The position numbers were made by a program, and so were the translations under genes. From Microcoleus sp. (GTDB lineage: Bacteria > Cyanobacteriota > Cyanobacteriia > Cyanobacteriales > Microcoleaceae), in the NCBI GenBank assembly GCA_042408215.1, contig JAYFMW010000030.1:192001-256000 (forward strand): DNA of 64,000 nucleotides, written 5' to 3'. This document shows positions 1 through 9,141 of the stretch, piece after piece; position 1 is the stretch's first letter, and each line of letters begins with the position of its first letter. Under the pieces are notes generated by a model. That model saw only the letters and a list, made by a program, of their open reading frames with translations, made no database searches and was not told where the DNA came from.

Positions 1-95
1 AATTTTTCAAAATCCAATGGCTTCATCTGCATCATACCAGACATACTAGCCATTCTTCTCATCGGTGCAGTTTGATCAAAGTGCTCTGGGGGTAG
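1..95 (+). other. Possible 3' end of a RiPP precursor peptide gene, truncated by the window edge
   Basis: Frame 3 reads ...HHTRHTSHSSHRCSLIKVLWG* with His every third residue; frame 2 reads IFQNPMASSASYQTY*. Lies directly upstream of a hairpin and a radical SAM maturase. True frame uncertain. Confidence 0.45.
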
Positions 96-122
96 TCAAT
101 AACTGGCTATGTACAGAATACT

Positions 123-168
123 AATTAAATGGCTACTAATTACCTCAAGCAATAGTAGCCATTTAATT
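123..168 (+). terminator. 16-bp perfect inverted repeat (stem-loop) between the putative precursor and the radical SAM gene
   Basis: AATTAAATGGCTACTA (123-138) / TAGTAGCCATTTAATT (153-168). Confidence 0.6.
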
Positions 169-216
169 CTGGCATACATAATTTAAGTTTTGAACATATC
201 ATAGATTTATGGCTGA

Positions 217-1374
217 GTGTCCACACCCTTACATTCGCTGGTTTGTAAAGTAGTATCCCGTTGCAACCTTAACTGTGATTATTGCTATATGTATCAGCAT
301 AGCGATCAAAGTTGGCAACAGCAACCTTTGAAAATGTCTGAAGCAACTATTACACAATTAGGTAAGAGAATTGATGAACATACCACCAAACACCAAGTAT
401 CAGAATTTTCTGTAATCATGCACGGTGGAGAACCTCTCTTAGCAGGGATTAGACTATCTCAAAAATTTTCAAGAGATTATTACAGAAAGATGTGCCTAAT
501 GTTAAACTAGAGATTTGGCATGCAAACTAATGGTGTGTTGTTAAACGATGAAATCTTAGATTTCTGTGTTTCTAATAATACAACAATAGGTCTAAGTATG
601 GATGGCGATCGAGAAGCTAACGATTTGCATCGCTTAGATCATCAAGGTAAATCTGCATTTTCCAGTTTGGAAAAGACTCTTCAATTATTAAGTAGCGATC
701 GAGGACGGAAAATATGGGCAGGTTTTTTATGTGTGATCGATCTACATAACGATCCTGAAGCTGTATATTCTTATTTGTCACAATATAATCCTCCTTCGAT
801 TGATTTTTTGTTACCTTTAAATCACCATGACTTAAGACCTCTTGGTAAAGAAAAATCTCTTGATGTAACTCCTTATGCAGACTGGCTACTTAAGATTTTT
901 GATATTTGGTATCATCAAAAACCTCAAACAATCAAAATTAGGAAATTCAAGGAAATTATTTTACTAATGCTAGGATTGCAAGGAAATTCAGAAGAATGGG
1001 GTTTAAACCCTGTTGATTTTGCCGTTATTGAAACCAACGGTGATATTGAAGCCGTTGATTCTTTGAAAGTTACTTATCCCGAAGCTACCAAGTTAGGAAT
1101 GGATATATTTACCCACAGTTTTGATGAGATTTTTGACTCCCCAAAGGTTATTCAACGTCAAGAAAAGTGGCAATATTTGAGCGAAACTTGTCAAGAATGT
1201 AACTTAGTTAAAGTTTGTGGTGGTGGTTATCTTCCCCATAGATATTCTAGCGAAAATTACTTTCATAATCCATCAGTGTATTGTTCCGATCTCAAAAAAC
1301 TGATTACTACAATTCGCCGCCAAGTAATTGAAGATATGCAAACAATCAAGAAGAAAAAACTTCCTGCTGTTTAG
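217..1374 (+). pseudogene. FxsB-type radical SAM/SPASM peptide maturase (cyclophane-forming family), interrupted at ~445-511 by a real lesion or sequencing error
   Basis: CNLNCDYC, HGGEPLL, MQTNG, SMDG and C-terminal CQEC..VCGGGYLPHRY..NPSVYC. ORFs 217-510 and 520-1374 share a frame and are split by TAG 508-510; the intervening protein-like sequence walks through frames 2, 3 and 1. Confidence 0.85.
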
Positions 1375-1408
1375 TCAAACTTCGTCTTATTAAATTAGGG
1401 TTAGTGCA

Positions 1409-3253
1409 ATGAAGATCGAACTGGATATTAATACCGTCAAAAACTTAGTTTCTCCTACGGGGGCTTCCGATCCATTAGTTAAAGTAATTTACTTAGCAGA
1501 ATATCATAGAACTTTGCTAAGGTTAAGTAATCTCTCTCAAAAACTGCAATCAGAATCACCTAAGTTAATTGATGGTTTAACCAACTTTTCTCAATCTTTT
1601 GAGTTGGTAAAATCTTTTTCTAAAAATGCCCAAAGAAAGATTTTACGCCATCCATCTTTTAGCGTTTGGTTAGATACAGCTTGGCAATTAGTTAACCGAA
1701 AAGCTCATATTCTGTTTCCAGAAATGCACATTAAGTTTCATCTGGAATCTTTCCCAAAGTTTCTTTTAGCAATGGCAAAATATGACAATATAGAAAATTT
1801 AGAGTGTTTTTTATATACCGATCATGCTGGAATTATTGCCATACCCGGAACCGGAATTTATTTACAGCATCCTCAACATCTTGCCTTTCAAAGATTGCGT
1901 TTTGTTACCACAACTAACGCTGGTTTTAATATTTATACAGATGGAAATCAAAATTTAGAGATGATTCAAAATGAAATACCTCATCTCAATAACGGCATTG
2001 AATTAAATGCTTTTGATAGCGATTTACGTTTAGGTGGTCGCTACGATTTGAATTTTGAGGAATTAACACCAACTTCCACTATTAAATGGTTATCTAGTTT
2101 AGAGGAAGCTTGGTTTTGGATAGAGAGTTGTTCAACTTTATTAGCAAGTGAAATTTTCATGGGAGTACAATCTTTAGTTCCAGTACATTCTCATGCTATA
2201 GATGTTCATAGAAGTCAGACATTTCGAGAAATACCCGGACTTTTGATTTTATCTTGGATGTCAGATACCTCAGTAATAGTAGAAGCTTTAGTCCATGAAT
2301 ATCATCATCATAAACTTAATGCTTTATTAAATTTAGAGCCAATCATTGTAGAAGGTAGTCCAGAAGAAATTTATTATTCTCCTTGGCGTGACGATCCCCG
2401 ACCTCTCAGTGGTATTTTGCAGGGAATTTATGTCTTTCAAGCTGTTTTAGAATTGTGGCATAAAATTCTGAAAACAGATATACCTGTTTTACAAGAAAAG
2501 CGTTTGCAACAAAAAGTATATTCTGCTAAGAAGCAACTGCTAACTGCACTTAAAGTTTTAACAACTAATGCAGGATTTTCTTTGATTGGTCAAGCATTGA
2601 TTGAAGCAATAGAAGAAAATATCGATCGAGTTGAACCTGAAATTTCTCAAATAGAACAACAACAAATTGACCTGAGATTAAAAGAACATCAGCAGAAATG
2701 GGAAGCGGCAAATCCTAATTTAGTCGGCACAAAAATCTTGCCAATTAAAGTATCTGTTGATTTGGCAAAAAATGACAACAATACAATATTGAATCAATCA
2801 TGTCAATGGCTAGGAATTACACCAAATATTGATTTACGTCCCTTAACTTATCTGAGACAACCATTCGATCCAATTCTTGAGACTTTAGTAGCTATTTACC
2901 ACGATCGAGGCTTAAAAGAATTAGAAGACATATTAAAAGGAACTCAGTTGGGAGATTCAATTTTATTAGATTTAATATGTGGACATACAGCTTATCTTAA
3001 TCAAGACTATCAGAAAGCAGCAGAATTTTATCAAAGTTGTATTGAGCAATATCCTAATGCTCCTTATTTTTGGCAATGTTTTATGTTTGCATTGAGACAT
3101 TTAAACCTGTTAGAAGATTACGAATTAATCTTGCTTAACATAGATAAAATTGTTGCTAATAGTTTAGAAATCAAAAAAATAATCAGGCAAAACTCAAACC
3201 CTGAAAATAAAGTTCAAATGATGGTTAAATTAGTTAAAACATTAGTTAATTAA
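1409..3253 (+). CDS. HExxH-domain protein (aKG-dependent peptide beta-hydroxylase family) with a C-terminal TPR-like region
   Basis: EALVHEYHHHKL and YYSPWRDDPRPLSGILQGIY motifs; TPR-like YQKAAEFYQSCIEQYPNAPYFW; adjacent to an FxsB-type rSAM. Confidence 0.85.
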   Translation: MKIELDINTVKNLVSPTGASDPLVKVIYLAEYHRTLLRLSNLSQKLQSESPKLIDGLTNFSQSFELVKSFSKNAQRKILRHPSFSVWLDTAWQLVNRKAHILFPEMHIKFHLESFPKFLLAMAKYDNIENLECFLYTDHAGIIAIPGTGIYLQHPQHLAFQRLRFVTTTNAGFNIYTDGNQNLEMIQNEIPHLNNGIELNAFDSDLRLGGRYDLNFEELTPTSTIKWLSSLEEAWFWIESCSTLLASEIFMGVQSLVPVHSHAIDVHRSQTFREIPGLLILSWMSDTSVIVEALVHEYHHHKLNALLNLEPIIVEGSPEEIYYSPWRDDPRPLSGILQGIYVFQAVLELWHKILKTDIPVLQEKRLQQKVYSAKKQLLTALKVLTTNAGFSLIGQALIEAIEENIDRVEPEISQIEQQQIDLRLKEHQQKWEAANPNLVGTKILPIKVSVDLAKNDNNTILNQSCQWLGITPNIDLRPLTYLRQPFDPILETLVAIYHDRGLKELEDILKGTQLGDSILLDLICGHTAYLNQDYQKAAEFYQSCIEQYPNAPYFWQCFMFALRHLNLLEDYELILLNIDKIVANSLEIKKIIRQNSNPENKVQMMVKLVKTLVN

Positions 3254-3260
3254 AACTTTT

Positions 3261-4232
3261 ATGAATACAGCAAGTTTGAGCAAACACTTAGTAAATAGTC
3301 CTTTTAGCAAATACTTTGAGATATTTCCTGATGGGGGACAATTACCTTCTTTTATTGCTACTGTCAAAGGGTTAAAATCGGCAACAGATTTATGGGTGCA
3401 AAAGCCCAAATGGAAATCTTTTTGTGAATTAGCTCAATATTTTGGCTTGTATTATTATGTAGATGCTTATTTTTATCGAGACATGGGAAAATTAAACAGT
3501 TTACCTCAAGAGTTATTTACTACAACTAAAGCTGTTTTTAGTAAAGAGTTTTCTGAGGAAGCTCATGTTTTTATTGCTAAGTCACAAGATGCTTTAACAA
3601 ATGCAATTGCTTCAGGATGGTATCCTTTAGTTGTCGGTCAAAGAGTAATTGAAAAACATTTACCAGACCATTATACTTTTGGAAAAGCACTAGGTTATCC
3701 TCAATGTTGTCTTGATTTTTTTCAAAAGCGAAATCATTGGAATTTTTATAATAATTACTATGAAACTTATCGCAATACGATTAACAAACCTACATATTTA
3801 TCAAATGGATTGTTACGTCATACTCCATTTTCACTAATTCCCCACATACCTTGTTCTTTTGATTGTCAAGCATCTATCCAATATGCTCAAAAAAATCGCC
3901 TTCTAATTAATGAGGAGAGCCAAGAATATTTAGAAGAAATAGAACATCATTTGCAAACACCAATTTTATGTCTGTCAGAACTTAAGATTTATCGTTTTGA
4001 AGGTAAAATTGTTGCTGAAAATATAGTCAACTATCAATCTGTAGAGGGAATATATCCTACATCACAAAATGATTGGCTATATCAAATACTTGTTAAAGGT
4101 GATACTTGTATTATTGAGGGGAATATTATTAGAGTCTACCGAGACAATTCTCAGATCAGTGCTTATTTTGCTAGAGGTGATAAACATGAAGTAGAGATTC
4201 CATTTTTGATGGATTTTTCCCAAGAGACTTAA
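3261..4232 (+). CDS. DUF483-like protein with Cys/His motifs, function unknown
   Basis: GKALGYPQCCLDFF and HIPCSFDC motifs; starts 7 bp after the upstream stop. Confidence 0.6.
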   Translation: MNTASLSKHLVNSPFSKYFEIFPDGGQLPSFIATVKGLKSATDLWVQKPKWKSFCELAQYFGLYYYVDAYFYRDMGKLNSLPQELFTTTKAVFSKEFSEEAHVFIAKSQDALTNAIASGWYPLVVGQRVIEKHLPDHYTFGKALGYPQCCLDFFQKRNHWNFYNNYYETYRNTINKPTYLSNGLLRHTPFSLIPHIPCSFDCQASIQYAQKNRLLINEESQEYLEEIEHHLQTPILCLSELKIYRFEGKIVAENIVNYQSVEGIYPTSQNDWLYQILVKGDTCIIEGNIIRVYRDNSQISAYFARGDKHEVEIPFLMDFSQET

Positions 4233-4318
4233 TTGACAAAATAGGCATTCTTAAAAACATTTTAGTGAGGAGCATAGAAGATGTATACTTTAGTTTTAAT
4301 TAGACGAGGATTAATCTA

Positions 4319-5119
4319 ATGAATCTTGTAGAAAGAATTATTAACAATATTCAAGAAAAAGACTTACAATATATTCTTGATTTAGAAAAAGAGATTTTGA
4401 ATTCTAAATTAACTTTAGATCGAAATTTGTTAATAGATGTGGAGGATCAAAAAACCGCCCAACGATATTTCTATCTTTATACACTACCTATGTTAGAAGG
4501 ACTAGGATTATTAGAGCAACAGGAAAATGCTATTTTTTGGGGGACTGTGCAATTATGTTTAGATTTACATCTCAGATATGTGGATTACATCATAGATGAT
4601 GATAAAATAGACATAAGCAGATTATTAATTACGCAAAAATCTTATGATTATTTATTCCGATCGCAAATGCTACTAAATCAAAAAGGCTATTTGTGGGGTT
4701 CCGATCAAATGGCTATTTATACCCAATATTTTGACTACGAGAAGGAGGCAAATACCGAGCAATTTCATGATTTTGGTAGCCTATGGAGACGAGTATCTCC
4801 TCTATTCATTGTTTCTGGAAGTTACTTAAAATTATCTGGTAAAATAGTTGATTTTGATTTTTATTACAAACGATATATAAGTTCTTGGCTGCTCAAAGCA
4901 GATTGCTCGGATATTATTAAGGATATTAATAAACAAAAAACCCCGATTACCAACTTAGTATATAATTACGATGCTCAAATTGATAAAAATGTCATGTTAA
5001 TGGCCAACACAGTTAACTCTATTGATGTCAAACTCGATCGAGGTTTAACTCAAATAAAAAACCACATATCTAACAAACTTCCAATATGGGCAATAATTAT
5101 TGAAAGTTTGTTGTCTTAA
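4319..5119 (+). CDS. Class I isoprenoid-synthase-fold protein, possible prenyltransferase
   Basis: Asp-rich YVDYIIDDD and second acidic motif LKADCSDIIKD; helical-looking 266 aa; GAGG RBS upstream. Confidence 0.5.
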   Translation: MNLVERIINNIQEKDLQYILDLEKEILNSKLTLDRNLLIDVEDQKTAQRYFYLYTLPMLEGLGLLEQQENAIFWGTVQLCLDLHLRYVDYIIDDDKIDISRLLITQKSYDYLFRSQMLLNQKGYLWGSDQMAIYTQYFDYEKEANTEQFHDFGSLWRRVSPLFIVSGSYLKLSGKIVDFDFYYKRYISSWLLKADCSDIIKDINKQKTPITNLVYNYDAQIDKNVMLMANTVNSIDVKLDRGLTQIKNHISNKLPIWAIIIESLLS

Positions 5120-5150
5120 AGTTTCCATAATATTCCTAAAGAATTACCTG

Positions 5151-5319
5151 TAATACCAATTTAATAGGTCGTTGCATATATTTCGATCCCCCTAAATCCC
5201 CCTTAATAAGGGAGTAGGGTGTGAGTAGGGGTTGACTTTGACCACCCTCTTGTCCCCCCCTTATTAAGGGGGGTTAGGGGGGATCAGATTCTATGCAGCC
5301 TCATAAAAAATTGGTATAA
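5151..5319. mobile_element. MITE with ATACCAAT terminal inverted repeats and a GATCCCCC...GGGGGATC core
   Basis: TAATACCAAT...ATTGGTATAA; reverse-oriented relative at 24834-25002. Confidence 0.7.
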
Positions 5320-5830
5320 GGGGGCATGGAAACCGACAAGCAAGGCGCGTCAATGCTTCGGCAGTCCAAAAGTCATATCAAATCCGTTGGCATCGGAATT
5401 ATTCATCTCTCAGGACTTACGCATTGTAACTGTGTGGCAAGGGTTTGAGATTCTTCGGTTCCCTCAGAATGACATAATTAGGTTATTAGTGCCTCCAGGA
5501 CTATCTCTCTCTTCTCTTCCTCTGCGGTCTCTGCGGTCTCTGCAGAGTTAAATCATTCCGAAACAACCGTAAACGAGATCGCTCAGACTTGTTTCATCAT
5601 GTCACCACAGGCGATACTGTCCAAGTTTTTCTCTTCAAGGTGAAGAAAACAAAGCATAATAGATCAAACTTACTGAGAGTGGAATCGTTAAACTGCACAC
5701 CACACTTCGGAGAAAAGCCGTGATGTTAGCAGAAAATAAGAGATTAACGGAGAAAAACCCCAGCAGGTCGGTGAAATTAAATTTCGATCGCCTGGGCGAA
5801 ACTCGGATCAAAGATAAATTCGGTTTATTT

Positions 5831-7552
5831 ATGCCCCTAAACTTAGAACAAAGCGATCGCAAAGTCAATCGATCGCGAAGCAAAGGTTTAAGTTCTTGGC
5901 TGATGCTCGTCTTTACCAGCGCTGCCTTTTTCTTGCCTCAACCGTCAGTGACCACCGCCCAGACTCCCCCCGCACAGCTCCTTGCTCAGGCGCAGCAGAG
6001 CGACATTAACATACTGTACGTCAGCTCGTCAGGCGGCAGTGACCAGGCGGGTAACGGGAGCGATCGAGATCCGTTCAAAACCCTTACCTACGCCTTGAGC
6101 GTCGCCCCGCCCAATACAGCAATTTTACTAGCCCCCGGTATCTACAGCGCTCAAACTGGCGAGCAATTTCCGATCGTACTCAAGCCCAGGGTGACTGTTC
6201 AGGGAAATCCCAACAATCGCGGCCAAAATATTGCGATCAAAGGCGGAGGAGAGTTTCTCAGTCCGACTTCGGCTGGTCAAAATATCGCGATTTTAGGGGC
6301 AGACGGGGCCGGACTCAGGGGGGTGACGGTGACAAATACCAATTATCGGGGTTACGGTTTGTGGATCGAATCGAGTTCTCCGATCGTTGTCAACAATACT
6401 TTTTCCGGCAGCACTCACGACGGAATTTCAGTGGTAGGGACTTCCCAGCCGACAATCAGCCAGAATTTTTTCTCGAAAAATGGAGCTAATGGCATCACAA
6501 TTTTTGGCAGTTCGAGACCAGAAGTTCGAGAGAATGTGTTTGAAAACACGGGATTTGGGGTGAATGTAGCTCAGAATGCTGCTCCTCTGTTGATTGGTAA
6601 TCAGATTACTCGCAATCAGGATGGCGTGGTGGTGCAAGCTGAGGCTAGACCGGTGCTGCGTCACAATTATATCGAGAGGAACCAGCGGGATGGAATTGTG
6701 GCGATCGCCCAATCGCTCCCGGATTTAGGAACTGTGGCGGAACCGGGAGGGAATGTAATTCGCAACAACGGCCAGCACGATGTCAACAATGCAGCCAAAG
6801 GTCAAGTGATCTCGGCTTACGGGAATCAATTGTTGAGTAACCGCACGGTGGGCGGAGTTGATGTAGGGGGAACTTTTAGCCCCCCGCCATCCATTAGCCG
6901 CCATGCTGTACAGTTAGTTACCGATCGACCCCCCAGAAGCTCCGGCCCAGAAAGTTCTCTTCCTGCTTACACTCCAGGCCCCCTAACTCCTAGGACTCAA
7001 AGAGCACCGATTTCGCCAAGAGTCCAAAATCAACGGGCACCGCGCAACATTCAGTTGCGCCCTCTTCTGACTCCCAGGAATGTCAATGCTTCGCCTGCTG
7101 CGACAGGGGCGATCGAAATTCCCGTGCCGAATCCAGATGCTCGATCGGTTCCAGAAATTTCGGTGCCGCAGCCAGTCCCTCCCAATTTTGAGAGTTCAAC
7201 TCCGGTTTCTGTCGAGGGTAGATTGCCGGTTCCGAGTCGCAACATTCCTCTGGGAAGGGGCGGCTACGTACCCACTGCTTTAGGGGGGAATTCTTTGTCC
7301 GACTCCGGGGAGAATGCGCCGTCACTCGATCGCGCCAGAGCTTTGGGTTTCCGGTATCGGGTTGTGGTAGATGCCGATAGTCAGGGCGCGAGAGCCAAGA
7401 CGCAATCTCTGGTTCCCGATGCTTTTCGCAGTTTTAGTAATGGGCGATCGGTCATCCAAGTCGGTGCTTTTCTGGAACGCGAAAAAGCTGATGAATTAGC
7501 ACAAATGCTCAGCCAAAACGGTTTGAATGTGCGAATTGAAGATATCAAATAG
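5831..7552 (+). CDS. DUF1565 / parallel beta-helix protein with a Pro-rich linker and a C-terminal SPOR-like domain
   Basis: LYVSSSGGSD..G..PFKTLTYAL..PGIYS motif, repeated NxFxxN..GI beta-helix units, C-terminal IQVGAF..A. Start uncertain (GTG 5720 possible). Confidence 0.75.
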   Translation: MPLNLEQSDRKVNRSRSKGLSSWLMLVFTSAAFFLPQPSVTTAQTPPAQLLAQAQQSDINILYVSSSGGSDQAGNGSDRDPFKTLTYALSVAPPNTAILLAPGIYSAQTGEQFPIVLKPRVTVQGNPNNRGQNIAIKGGGEFLSPTSAGQNIAILGADGAGLRGVTVTNTNYRGYGLWIESSSPIVVNNTFSGSTHDGISVVGTSQPTISQNFFSKNGANGITIFGSSRPEVRENVFENTGFGVNVAQNAAPLLIGNQITRNQDGVVVQAEARPVLRHNYIERNQRDGIVAIAQSLPDLGTVAEPGGNVIRNNGQHDVNNAAKGQVISAYGNQLLSNRTVGGVDVGGTFSPPPSISRHAVQLVTDRPPRSSGPESSLPAYTPGPLTPRTQRAPISPRVQNQRAPRNIQLRPLLTPRNVNASPAATGAIEIPVPNPDARSVPEISVPQPVPPNFESSTPVSVEGRLPVPSRNIPLGRGGYVPTALGGNSLSDSGENAPSLDRARALGFRYRVVVDADSQGARAKTQSLVPDAFRSFSNGRSVIQVGAFLEREKADELAQMLSQNGLNVRIEDIK

Positions 7553-7786
7553 TTATTAGTTCTTGGGAATTGGGAATTGGGCATTGGAACTAACAACCAA
7601 CCAATAACTAATAACTAATAACTCATAACCAATAACCGTTAACCCACAAATTTTGAGGGCCTAGCAACCGGATTGCAAGACCCTCAAAATTTTGTAATTT
7701 GAGTTGATTCAAGTTGATTTGAGCTAAGCTGACTTGAGCAATCTACGAGTAAAGGTGGACTTTTTGAGCAACTACTTTGTTCTGAG

Positions 7787-9141
7787 TTGACACTCCTCGG
7801 CCTGAAGGCACTCTTGATTCTTGGTTCAGTCAGTCGGCTTGCCCGTTGATGTTACCACCAACGAGTAGAGGTCGTTCTGTCCCCAAGCGTTAATTTCGGT
7901 GTGCCCCACCGTATTTAGATTGATTCCTGTTTGTTTTAATCCTTTTGCTAGAATATTCAGAGCTGCATTGTGGTCACGGTCTAATACCGCCCCACATCCG
8001 CAAATATGGGTTCTAGTTGATAGCGTTTTCTTAACTAGATTCCCACAACTTGAACAATCTTGGGAAGTGTACTGAGGAGCAACAGCAACTACTGTTTTAC
8101 CGTACACTTTCCCCAAGTATTGCAACCATTGAGCAAACTGCGACCAAGCTGCATCACTAATTGATTTAGCAAGCTTATGGTTTTTCACCATATTCCGCAC
8201 CTGAAGGTTTTCGTAGGCTACGAAATCGTTAGATTTCACTACGCACAACGCCATCTTAATGGCGTTGTCTTTGCGTTGCCTACTGACTTTTAGGTGTTTC
8301 CTTCCTAACTTATTGATTGCTTTTTTGCGATTACTAGAACCTTTCTTTTTCCGAGAAACTCGTTTCTGTAACCGCTTTAAAGCTTTTTCACTTTTACGGA
8401 GATGTCGAGGATTAGAAACTGTTTCTCCGGTGCTATCAGTGTAGAAATGGTTTAAACCCACATCCAACCCTACGGCTTTGCCAGTAGGAATTGTTTCCTC
8501 TGTCCGTTCCACGTTGATACAAAACTGAGCGTAGTAGCCATCGGCACGACGAACTATCCTGATTCGCTTAATTTCACCAGGTGCATAGAAGTGCAAATCT
8601 CGACTACCAAGTAGCCTAAATGTTCCAGCGGCAAAATCATCCGTGAAAGTTAAACATCTTTTGTCGGCAGAAAGCTTCCAACCTGAAGTCTTATATTCTA
8701 CAGAACGGGTGTGTTTCTTAAACTGCGGGTAGCCCTTTTTTCCTGGCTTCTTAGTTTTACAATTTGAGAAAAAACGTTGGATAGCAAAAATGGCGCGTTC
8801 AGCAGAAGCTTGACGTGCCATCGAGTTAAGTTTTCCTGCCCATTCAAACTATGAGGCCATGATGGCGCATTGTTTGTATAGATCAACTAACTTAACTACT
8901 TGATTGTCGATCCAATATCTAAGAGTTTTGTTTCGGACAAATTGCGCTGTGCGGATCATTTCGTCGATAATCCGATATTGCTGCGATTTGCCTTTTAATT
9001 TAAACTCTAGTACAATCATGCTATTATTCTATCGTTTTTGCAGAGCATTGTATTCGCAAAGTGCATATATTTAAGAATTGTTTACACTTTATAGAAATTA
9101 AAGCCGTCCTAGAAGGACGGGGCTTTAGACCCAAATTTTTG
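7787..9141 (-). mobile_element. IS200/IS605-family element carrying tnpB only (no tnpA)
   Basis: Left end TTAC|CAAAAATTTGGGTCTAAAGCCCCGTCCTTCTAGGACGGC; right end ...GGAGTGTCAA; encloses tnpB. Confidence 0.85.
7826..9019 (-). pseudogene. tnpB: TnpB RNA-guided endonuclease with an in-frame TAG at codon 57
   Basis: ATG at 9019 (MIVLEFKLKGK...) is in frame with ORF 7826-8821; TAG at 8851-8849; RuvC motifs GLDVGL, AYENL, DRDHNAA and a Cys zinc finger. Confidence 0.85.

Follow-up and report, generated by a model that had tools for sequence, protein, structure and literature searches.

What does a short, AT-rich run of genes at the start of a 64,000-nucleotide (nt) stretch of Microcoleus sp. DNA make, and do its two least familiar members belong to the same pathway? 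The stretch, here called the window (assembly GCA_042408215.1, contig JAYFMW010000030.1, forward-strand positions 192,001 to 256,000), opens with genes that an initial annotation read as a cluster for a cyclophane peptide that might also be prenylated. We find that they are part of a real, conserved, and mobile unit for a peptide that is made by ribosomes and modified after translation (a RiPP). This AT-rich cassette of ~6.9 kb consists of a likely NB-ARC regulator, a precursor, an FxsB-type radical S-adenosylmethionine (rSAM) enzyme, an HExxH-TPR protein, a DUF483-like protein (ORF4), and a sixth protein, ORF5. With moderate confidence, we read it as a triceptide-type pathway whose product is probably prenylated.

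A precursor with aromatic triplets and its maturation enzymes

The precursor gene starts upstream of the window at position -134 (L001:11866), and its 3′ part, encoding the core, occupies positions 1 to 95 on the plus strand; the orthologues in loci L002-L007 are 71-74 amino acids (aa) long. The leader is acidic, Leu-rich, and almost invariant, and the core is variable. All nine cyanobacterial cores listed carry four or five aromatic residues, mostly His, spaced exactly three apart; H-x-S is central among these triplets, and the residues between the aromatics vary. Aromatic-X-X rings are what defines a triceptide, and examples of His-C2 rings exist (PMC11499958, PMC11002830). After the triplets, a Trp forms the last or second-last residue in nine of nine cores. 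Having no third residue to link to, this Trp cannot start a ring, and its conservation needs another explanation. The host copy has one frame that retains the His triplets and ends Trp-Gly-stop.

Cassette cores end in W or WG, not in FxSxx, and among three precursors scanned the best score on the FxSxx-COOH family model (TIGR04268) is 13.4 bits, below the cut-off of 28 (L003 orthologue), so that the leader resembles FxsA only faintly. The precursors also fall below the HxsA-family cut-offs (17.1 < 121.65 and 18.4 < 65). The precursor locus also contains an ORF of 69 aa whose tail is hydrophobic; it was dismissed as a frameshift product.

Five open reading frames (ORFs) follow in the window, all on the plus strand (217-510, 520-1374, 1409-3253, 3261-4232, and 4319-5119). 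They had been annotated as four co-oriented, close-set, AT-rich genes, an arrangement that stands (gaps of 34, 7, and 86 nt; GC content 0.328 in the region vs. 0.451 genome-wide, with no equally low value in 1472 windows of 5 kb). The rSAM gene, however, is not the single ORF described, being split in the assembly, and the gene set as described omitted the precursor and a divergent NB-ARC gene.

The family assignments made from the sequence were borne out. The rSAM/SPASM cyclophane synthase gene spans 209-1374, its start being set by alignment to relatives. An intact orthologue (L002, 386 aa; tblastn identity to the host gene 91.6%) scores 431.5 bits on the FxsB-type model TIGR04269 (cut-off 370), and the host fragments alone reach 111 and 304 bits. 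The rSAM protein stays below the cut-off of the YhhB equivalog NF041707 (393.1 < 445) and scores 75.7 on the HxsB model (cut-off 370); it is the only rSAM in the cassette. The next gene (1409-3253) encodes a putative α-ketoglutarate-dependent HExxH (aKG-HExxH) peptide β-hydroxylase of 614 aa, which matches TIGR04267 (109.9 bits; cut-off 40) and contains the annotated HExxH and PWRxDxRP motifs. Other HExxH enzymes can also cleave the peptide backbone (PMC12636437). The C-terminal module of the cassette protein (~160 aa), where the TPR match is weak (residues 525-550), has homologues in the N-terminal parts of two TPR-DUF483 fusions (P0056 and P0058) and in small ORFs directly after DUF483 genes in HXS loci. 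This recurrence with DUF483 indicates that TPR and DUF483 form one module.

Conservation of the cassette and frameshifts in the host copy

The unit is intact in six out of six genome loci, five in Microcoleus and one in a cyanobacterial metagenome-assembled genome, with NB-ARC proteins of 448-468 aa, precursors of 71-74 aa, and rSAM proteins of 386-388 aa. The common DNA spans positions from about -1740 to 5125 and ends there, and the flanking genes vary between genomes. Shared up to these borders and set among different neighbors, the unit moves as a cassette. A search of 144 genomes of the family gave ORF4 matches in 12, eight of which have the full cassette (among them the host and L132, from another genus) and one a different DUF483 type (L134). 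In wider samples, ORF5 is matched in two out of 401 genomes of the phylum and ORF4 in three out of 401 genomes of the order.

The remaining copies count against our reading of the cassette, as does the host copy itself. Of the 12 genomes, two have in common a deletion of the segment corresponding to window positions 2828-4092, and in another only a remnant of the unit is left. In the host, 1-nt insertions at three places (near 445, 489, and 510) break the rSAM gene into ORFs 217-510 and 520-1374, and the precursor core is likewise frameshifted as assembled. In the two genomes with the deletion (G062 and G744, loci L136 and L137), the TPR tail is gone along with most of ORF4, but the precursor, rSAM, HExxH domain, and ORF5 are still open; this is a natural ORF4-less variant.

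The host-only insertions lie near positions 7, 30, 63, 86, 111, 445, 489, and 510; the NB-ARC gene has a further one, and positions 511-4232 have none. They could be genuine mutations in a strain whose cassette is dead: they are present in the assembly, and three of the 11 cassette-bearing genomes of the family hold decayed copies. Their distribution points elsewhere. About eleven 1-nt insertions crowd into positions 3-510, non-coding DNA included, and the next 3.7 kb is free of them, a clustering that resembles one poor read. All are absent from the six intact relatives. We checked at least 11 insertion sites against contigs of sequencing runs X1, X2, and X5, which lack the insertions wherever the sites are covered, although same-strain origin is not demonstrated for any of these runs and X1 shows 34 differences over 1881 letters. 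Out of 21 other host genes checked for splitting, 20 are unsplit. Because all six relatives are intact, we read the insertions as sequence errors: local error is highly probable, and a cassette truly dead in the host strain is rather unlikely.

ORF5 has an isoprenoid-synthase fold

The annotated pair of Asp-rich motifs and isoprenoid-synthase fold of ORF5 (4319-5119, plus strand, 266 aa) were both recovered. Its predicted structure is all-helical (predicted local distance difference test [pLDDT] score 89.7). The top ranks in VIA-align are trans-isoprenyl diphosphate synthases and MoeN5 (Z 17.7-17.4, root mean square deviation [rmsd] 3.4-3.7), led by geranylgeranyl diphosphate (GGPP) synthase 3n3d (Z 17.7, rmsd 3.4, 256 residues aligned), with the prenyltransferase MoeN5 at Z 17.5 and terpene cyclases lower (Z ~10-12). 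Among the matches listed, all Foldseek hits are isoprenoid synthases or prenyltransferases, none reaching E 0.001; the nearest named ESM Atlas cluster is an isoprenoid-synthase family (0.91), which we take as a lead only. The model thus predicts the class I isoprenoid-synthase fold, as in trans-isoprenyl-diphosphate synthases.

Among 1.84 billion representatives searched with a profile, 49 proteins matched at E ≤ 0.001. In our alignment of 52 sequences, from which fragments, three fusions, the weakest match, and near-duplicates were excluded, D89, D93, D195, and D202 are present in every row and D198 in 49, these positions being sited by sequence motif and not by superposition. R86, R158, S160, and T208 are almost invariant, and the family has a WRRxS motif of its own. 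Sequence searches with ORF5 were empty in solved structures, Pfam, NCBIfam, plasmids, and viral contigs. Between the host and six relatives, ORF5 has a ratio of nonsynonymous to synonymous substitution rates (dN/dS) of 0.13-0.32, and ORF4 one of 0.31-0.45.

Gene context places ORF5, to all appearances, in the peptide pathway. The three fused homologues carry it C-terminally behind TIGR04267 (HExxH) domains, and homologues of ORF5 and ORF4 are directly adjacent in L012, L021, L132, and, in pieces, L022. For 10 out of 30 ORF5 clusters the longest contig is identical in exact size to that of an ORF4 homologue, against 0.12 expected from an offset control; this is an indirect test of contig sharing, made with an incomplete list of ORF4 homologues. 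The initial annotation's expectation that homologues of this gene would keep such company is therefore supported. The L021 locus (576-8684) is a larger relative of the cassette, with three DUF483-like genes, the ORF5 homologue, a methyltransferase with a PqqD-like domain, and a precursor with four His triplets before a terminal Trp.

ORF5 might nevertheless be a small-molecule enzyme that elongates or cyclizes a prenyl diphosphate and leaves the peptide untouched. The proteins it matches best in structure are chain-elongating synthases, and its second Asp cluster has the spacing DxxDxxxD, which resembles class I cyclase and squalene-synthase motifs. Chain-elongating trans-isoprenyl diphosphate synthases have a DDxxD first motif followed by a loop with an RR pair that has a role in isopentenyl diphosphate (IPP) binding. 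In the ORF5 family, however, DDxxD (second Asp) is found in only 14 out of 52 rows and the RR pair after it in only five. Cyclases rank lower in the structural comparison, the cassette has no other prenyltransferase, and the fusions join ORF5 homologues to a peptide hydroxylase. We consider a small-molecule role quite unlikely.

The terminal Trp accompanies ORF5

If ORF5 acts on the peptide, the terminal Trp is its likely acceptor. Precursors end in W or WG in all 10 loci where one can be seen together with ORF5 (L002-L007, L132, L136, L137, and L021), although these loci are kin and not independent. Where ORF5 was not found with >1.1 kb visible downstream (L018, L027, L029, L030, and L033), none of the five candidate precursors has a terminal Trp. 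In L009, L010, L011, and L017, precursors end in Trp and the contigs end too early to score ORF5. Characterized trans-IDS-like peptide prenyltransferases all target Trp (PMC13290415), and PalQ prenylates a conserved C-terminal Trp (PMC10853753).

Several observations weigh against Trp prenylation. The split between loci with and without ORF5 amounts to about two lineages per side. L017 has a Trp-terminal precursor, yet an rSAM gene and not ORF5 follows ORF4 (the contig ends 866 nt on). Many cassette cores end in WG, despite PalQ's rejection of extensions after Trp (PMC13290415). The Gln upstream of the second Asp motif that serves as the Trp-recognition residue of ComQ, PalQ, and Ord1 (PMC13290415) is largely missing: only four of the 52 ORF5 rows have a Gln within five residues of D195. 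Finally, neither Pfam nor NCBIfam has an isoprenoid-synthase model that any of the 52 homologues matches.

The absent Gln, the His-rich core, and the family's own WRRxS motif would also suit an ORF5 that prenylates core His (or Tyr/Phe), the Trp being retained for activity of the product. His geranylation does occur in RiPPs, through LimF, an enzyme of a different fold (PMC11002830). But the peptide-acting enzymes of ORF5's own fold characterized so far all use Trp (PMC13290415), the His residues sit in ring register, and His-rich precursors without a terminal Trp have no ORF5. This alternative is decidedly unlikely. Trp prenylation by ORF5 is the best reading, and we hold it with moderate confidence. 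The suggestion of a prenylated cyclophane is to this extent supported, the precursor adding a conserved terminal Trp as the likely acceptor; both prenylation and ORF4 chemistry remain inferred.

ORF4 and its homologues in rSAM loci

ORF4 (3261-4232, plus strand, 323 aa) matches DUF483 (PF04467; 31.7 bits, cut-off 25) over residues 121-224 and has the GYPxCC and HxPC motifs, in line with its annotation. No row of the 77 aligned lacks C149, C150, C198, or C202, which form a probable metal site. The polar residues D43, H102, D136, N158, N182, H195, and E240 are kept in at least 70 of these rows. The predicted model is confident (pLDDT 93.7), and its fold has no clear match: the best are 2guk (Z 7.5) and NleE (Z 5.0), with no hit at E < 0.001 in PDB or BFVD, in fold-search rows that cover mainly residues 13-144 and barely the C-terminal half. 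A complex prediction for rSAM and ORF4 scored 0.00, which we count neither for nor against binding.

As had been expected of this gene, its homologues co-occur with rSAM/HExxH loci. Out of 27 metagenome loci, 22 are rSAM loci: 15 have FxsB/YhhB-like rSAM and/or HExxH genes, and seven are HXS-like (L014 and L015 by similarity only). One has ORF5 pieces only. The candidate substrates encoded there have His triplets. In a tree of 41 rows, host ORF4 falls in a clade (support 100/99) that mixes members from FxsB and HXS contexts. The expanded HXS loci (L013, L014, L016, L019, and L020) have several rSAMs, a DUF483-like gene, and a small TPR gene, and L013 includes an A24 peptidase. A second cluster type (L027 and L029-L033) has two each of YhhB/FxsB-like rSAM, HExxH, and DUF483-like genes and one- or two-cassette precursors ending H-x-V/T-Y-x-S-G-V-F; some of these loci also have a glycosyltransferase 61 or an FkbM methyltransferase. 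A Streptomyces plasmid also gave a match, which was rejected: it is a truncated relative of ORF4 next to a transposase, and no cluster surrounds it.

The association extends to viruses. We kept 80 of 83 viral loci; they are interrelated, and their proteins are distant from ORF4. An rSAM neighbor is present in 67 of the 80, and 67 have a frame with at least five H-x-D/S/T motifs per 40 residues, compared with none of 80 shuffles and 11 out of 150 random host windows. A SAM-motif pattern occurs in 46 of the 80 viral DUF483 proteins. The phage module (L037-L116), which is widespread, comprises an rSAM, a DUF483-methyltransferase-like fusion, and a long His-X-Asp repeat protein, and L135:6231-11933 is a cyanobacterial copy of the rSAM-DUF483 module with an added HExxH gene. 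ORF4-type proteins thus follow rSAMs with His-X-Ser/Thr/Asp substrates in triceptide, HXS, and phage loci alike.

What ORF4 does is less readily read from these patterns. We tentatively take it for a tailoring enzyme, an idea that the many polar residues kept besides the cysteines would fit as an active site. It may instead be a noncatalytic or redox partner, presenting the substrate or transferring electrons through an Fe-S center at His triplets, so that the product would be only cyclized, hydroxylated, and prenylated. The type recurs beside unrelated rSAM families, its homologues are fused to TPR (P0056 and P0058) or methyltransferase-like domains, two DUF483 copies go with two rSAMs in the second cluster type, and two genomes have lost ORF4 and kept the other cassette genes. 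Such a helper is possible if somewhat doubtful, given the polar residues and the fact that characterized His-ring synthases work without one. A protease is very unlikely. Two further points count against this part of our reading: four of the 27 metagenome loci have no nearby rSAM (L023-L026), and HtkB and MicB make His rings when co-expressed with the precursor only (PMC11499958, PMC12912966), so that ORF4 is not generally required for them.

Proposed pathway

The family assignments, folds, conservation, and co-occurrence described above are observed, and all of the chemistry below is inferred. First, and very probably, the rSAM enzyme would bind the acidic leader and link the aromatic ring of each triplet to the Cβ of its third residue (-2 Da per link), so that four or five contiguous rings, mostly His-based, result. 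The aKG-HExxH enzyme would then, in good likelihood, β-hydroxylate a residue of the cyclized core, as ChlH does with His and Asp (PMC12636437). ORF5 would ionize a Mg-bound prenyl diphosphate and, in the manner of ComQ and PalQ, alkylate the Trp outside the ring register; prenylation of the peptide by ORF5 is probable, and the terminal Trp as the site is somewhat less sure. ORF4, with the TPR module, may modify or present the His rings, most likely before ORF5 acts. No protease or exporter is encoded in the cassette, so leader removal and export would rely on host functions or ORF4; release of the core from the leader would most likely fall to host proteases. The product is likely a short, rigid, His-rich lipopeptide.

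A more ambitious version holds that the cassette makes a lipidated poly-cyclophane peptide with two new enzyme families: a prenyltransferase that recognizes Trp though it lacks the canonical Gln, and a DUF483 metalloenzyme with four cysteines whose reaction on His-containing three-residue rings would have no described precedent. We regard this combination as doubtful. If true, DUF483 chemistry would be an overlooked step common to triceptides, expanded HXS systems, and phage His-X-Asp repeat proteins.

Regulatory and flanking features

The NB-ARC gene (window -1743 to -339, minus strand; L001:10257-11661) encodes a protein with an N-terminal extension and lies divergently upstream of the precursor. 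It accompanies the cassette at every locus, is split by one insertion in the host assembly, and is likely the regulator of the cassette. A hairpin had been placed ahead of the operon. It exists, as a perfect 16-bp inverted repeat (positions 123-168, plus strand; arms 123-138 and 153-168), but lies between the precursor and the rSAM gene. Its fold z-score is -4.68, with no equally stable fold in 200 shuffles, and a paired change of G-C to A-T is seen by eye in L003 and L005. Its probable role is to stabilize the mRNA of the precursor or to attenuate read-through. Scans for promoters and terminators gave counts in line with chance expectation (29 vs. 25.5 and 4 vs. 3.0, respectively).

IS605-type TnpB/OrfB genes flank the cassette region on both sides (L001:8616-9908 and window 7826-8821), and farther upstream a DNA cytosine methyltransferase-like gene (L001:5014-6331) reads as two ORFs in the assembly. 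A PADLOC run on ORF3-ORF5 gave no match, and a defense role is thus unsupported here.

Comparison with known systems

The four-gene combination was put forward as undescribed, and our literature searches agree: in main texts we found no description of a prenylated triceptide or of this cluster, although supplementary cluster tables could list the locus. If our reading is right, the cassette unites three-residue cyclophanes with isoprenoid-synthase-type prenylation and adds a prenyltransferase family outside the Pfam and NCBIfam models, possibly useful for lipidation of terminal-Trp peptides. With its short precursor, an rSAM family proven in E. coli, and naturally varied cores, it is also the simplest test system for DUF483, a domain of bacteria, archaea, and phages whose function becomes directly testable.

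The closest relatives are the FxsB/YhhB triceptide systems (MscB, ChlBH, YhhB, HaaB, and HtkB; PMC11002830, PMC11499958, PMC12636437), with which the cassette shares an rSAM above the TIGR04269 cut-off, a HExxH protein above that of TIGR04267, and a precursor with aromatic-X-X motifs, His included. It differs in its four or five contiguous triplets and terminal Trp, its HExxH protein with TPR, its two extra genes, its unfused rSAM and HExxH proteins, and its scores under the FxSxx-COOH and YhhB cut-offs. Minviopeptin (mic cluster; PMC12912966) is likewise a triceptide; it has a His-X-Ser ring and is tailored by additional enzymes of unusual kinds, but that tailoring consists of ADP-ribosylation and oxidative cleavage, and the available part of that source names no DUF483 or isoprenoid-synthase-fold protein.

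ORF5 resembles ComQ, PalQ, and the P-domain of ChrPC (PMC13290415, PMC10853753) in its fold, its two Asp clusters, and a conserved precursor Trp near or at the C-terminus. Unlike these, it matches none of the Pfam or NCBIfam family models, lacks the Gln, carries WRRxS, and lies in an rSAM cyclophane cluster.

The HXS system HxsABCD (PMC13128918) also has His-X-Ser repeats as rSAM substrate, and expanded HXS loci contain close relatives of ORF4 as well as the TPR module. The cassette, in contrast, has no HxsB, HxsC, or HxsD, and its substrate is a peptide of 71-74 aa and not a periplasmic effector. Canonical HXS works with four genes and shows an unexplained +8 Da change (PMC13128918). In Thermus phages, DUF483 is associated or fused with rSAM and methyltransferase domains, and DNA modification has been suggested for this module (bioRxiv 10.1101/2024.08.14.607894), which has the same PF04467 domain as ORF4. 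The neighbors of ORF4, however, are peptide maturases, and the viral homologues adjoin His-X-Asp repeat proteins; the phage module looks more like protein modification than the DNA modification suggested in print. Set against all of these systems, the cassette is a triceptide variant with two uncharacterized enzyme families.

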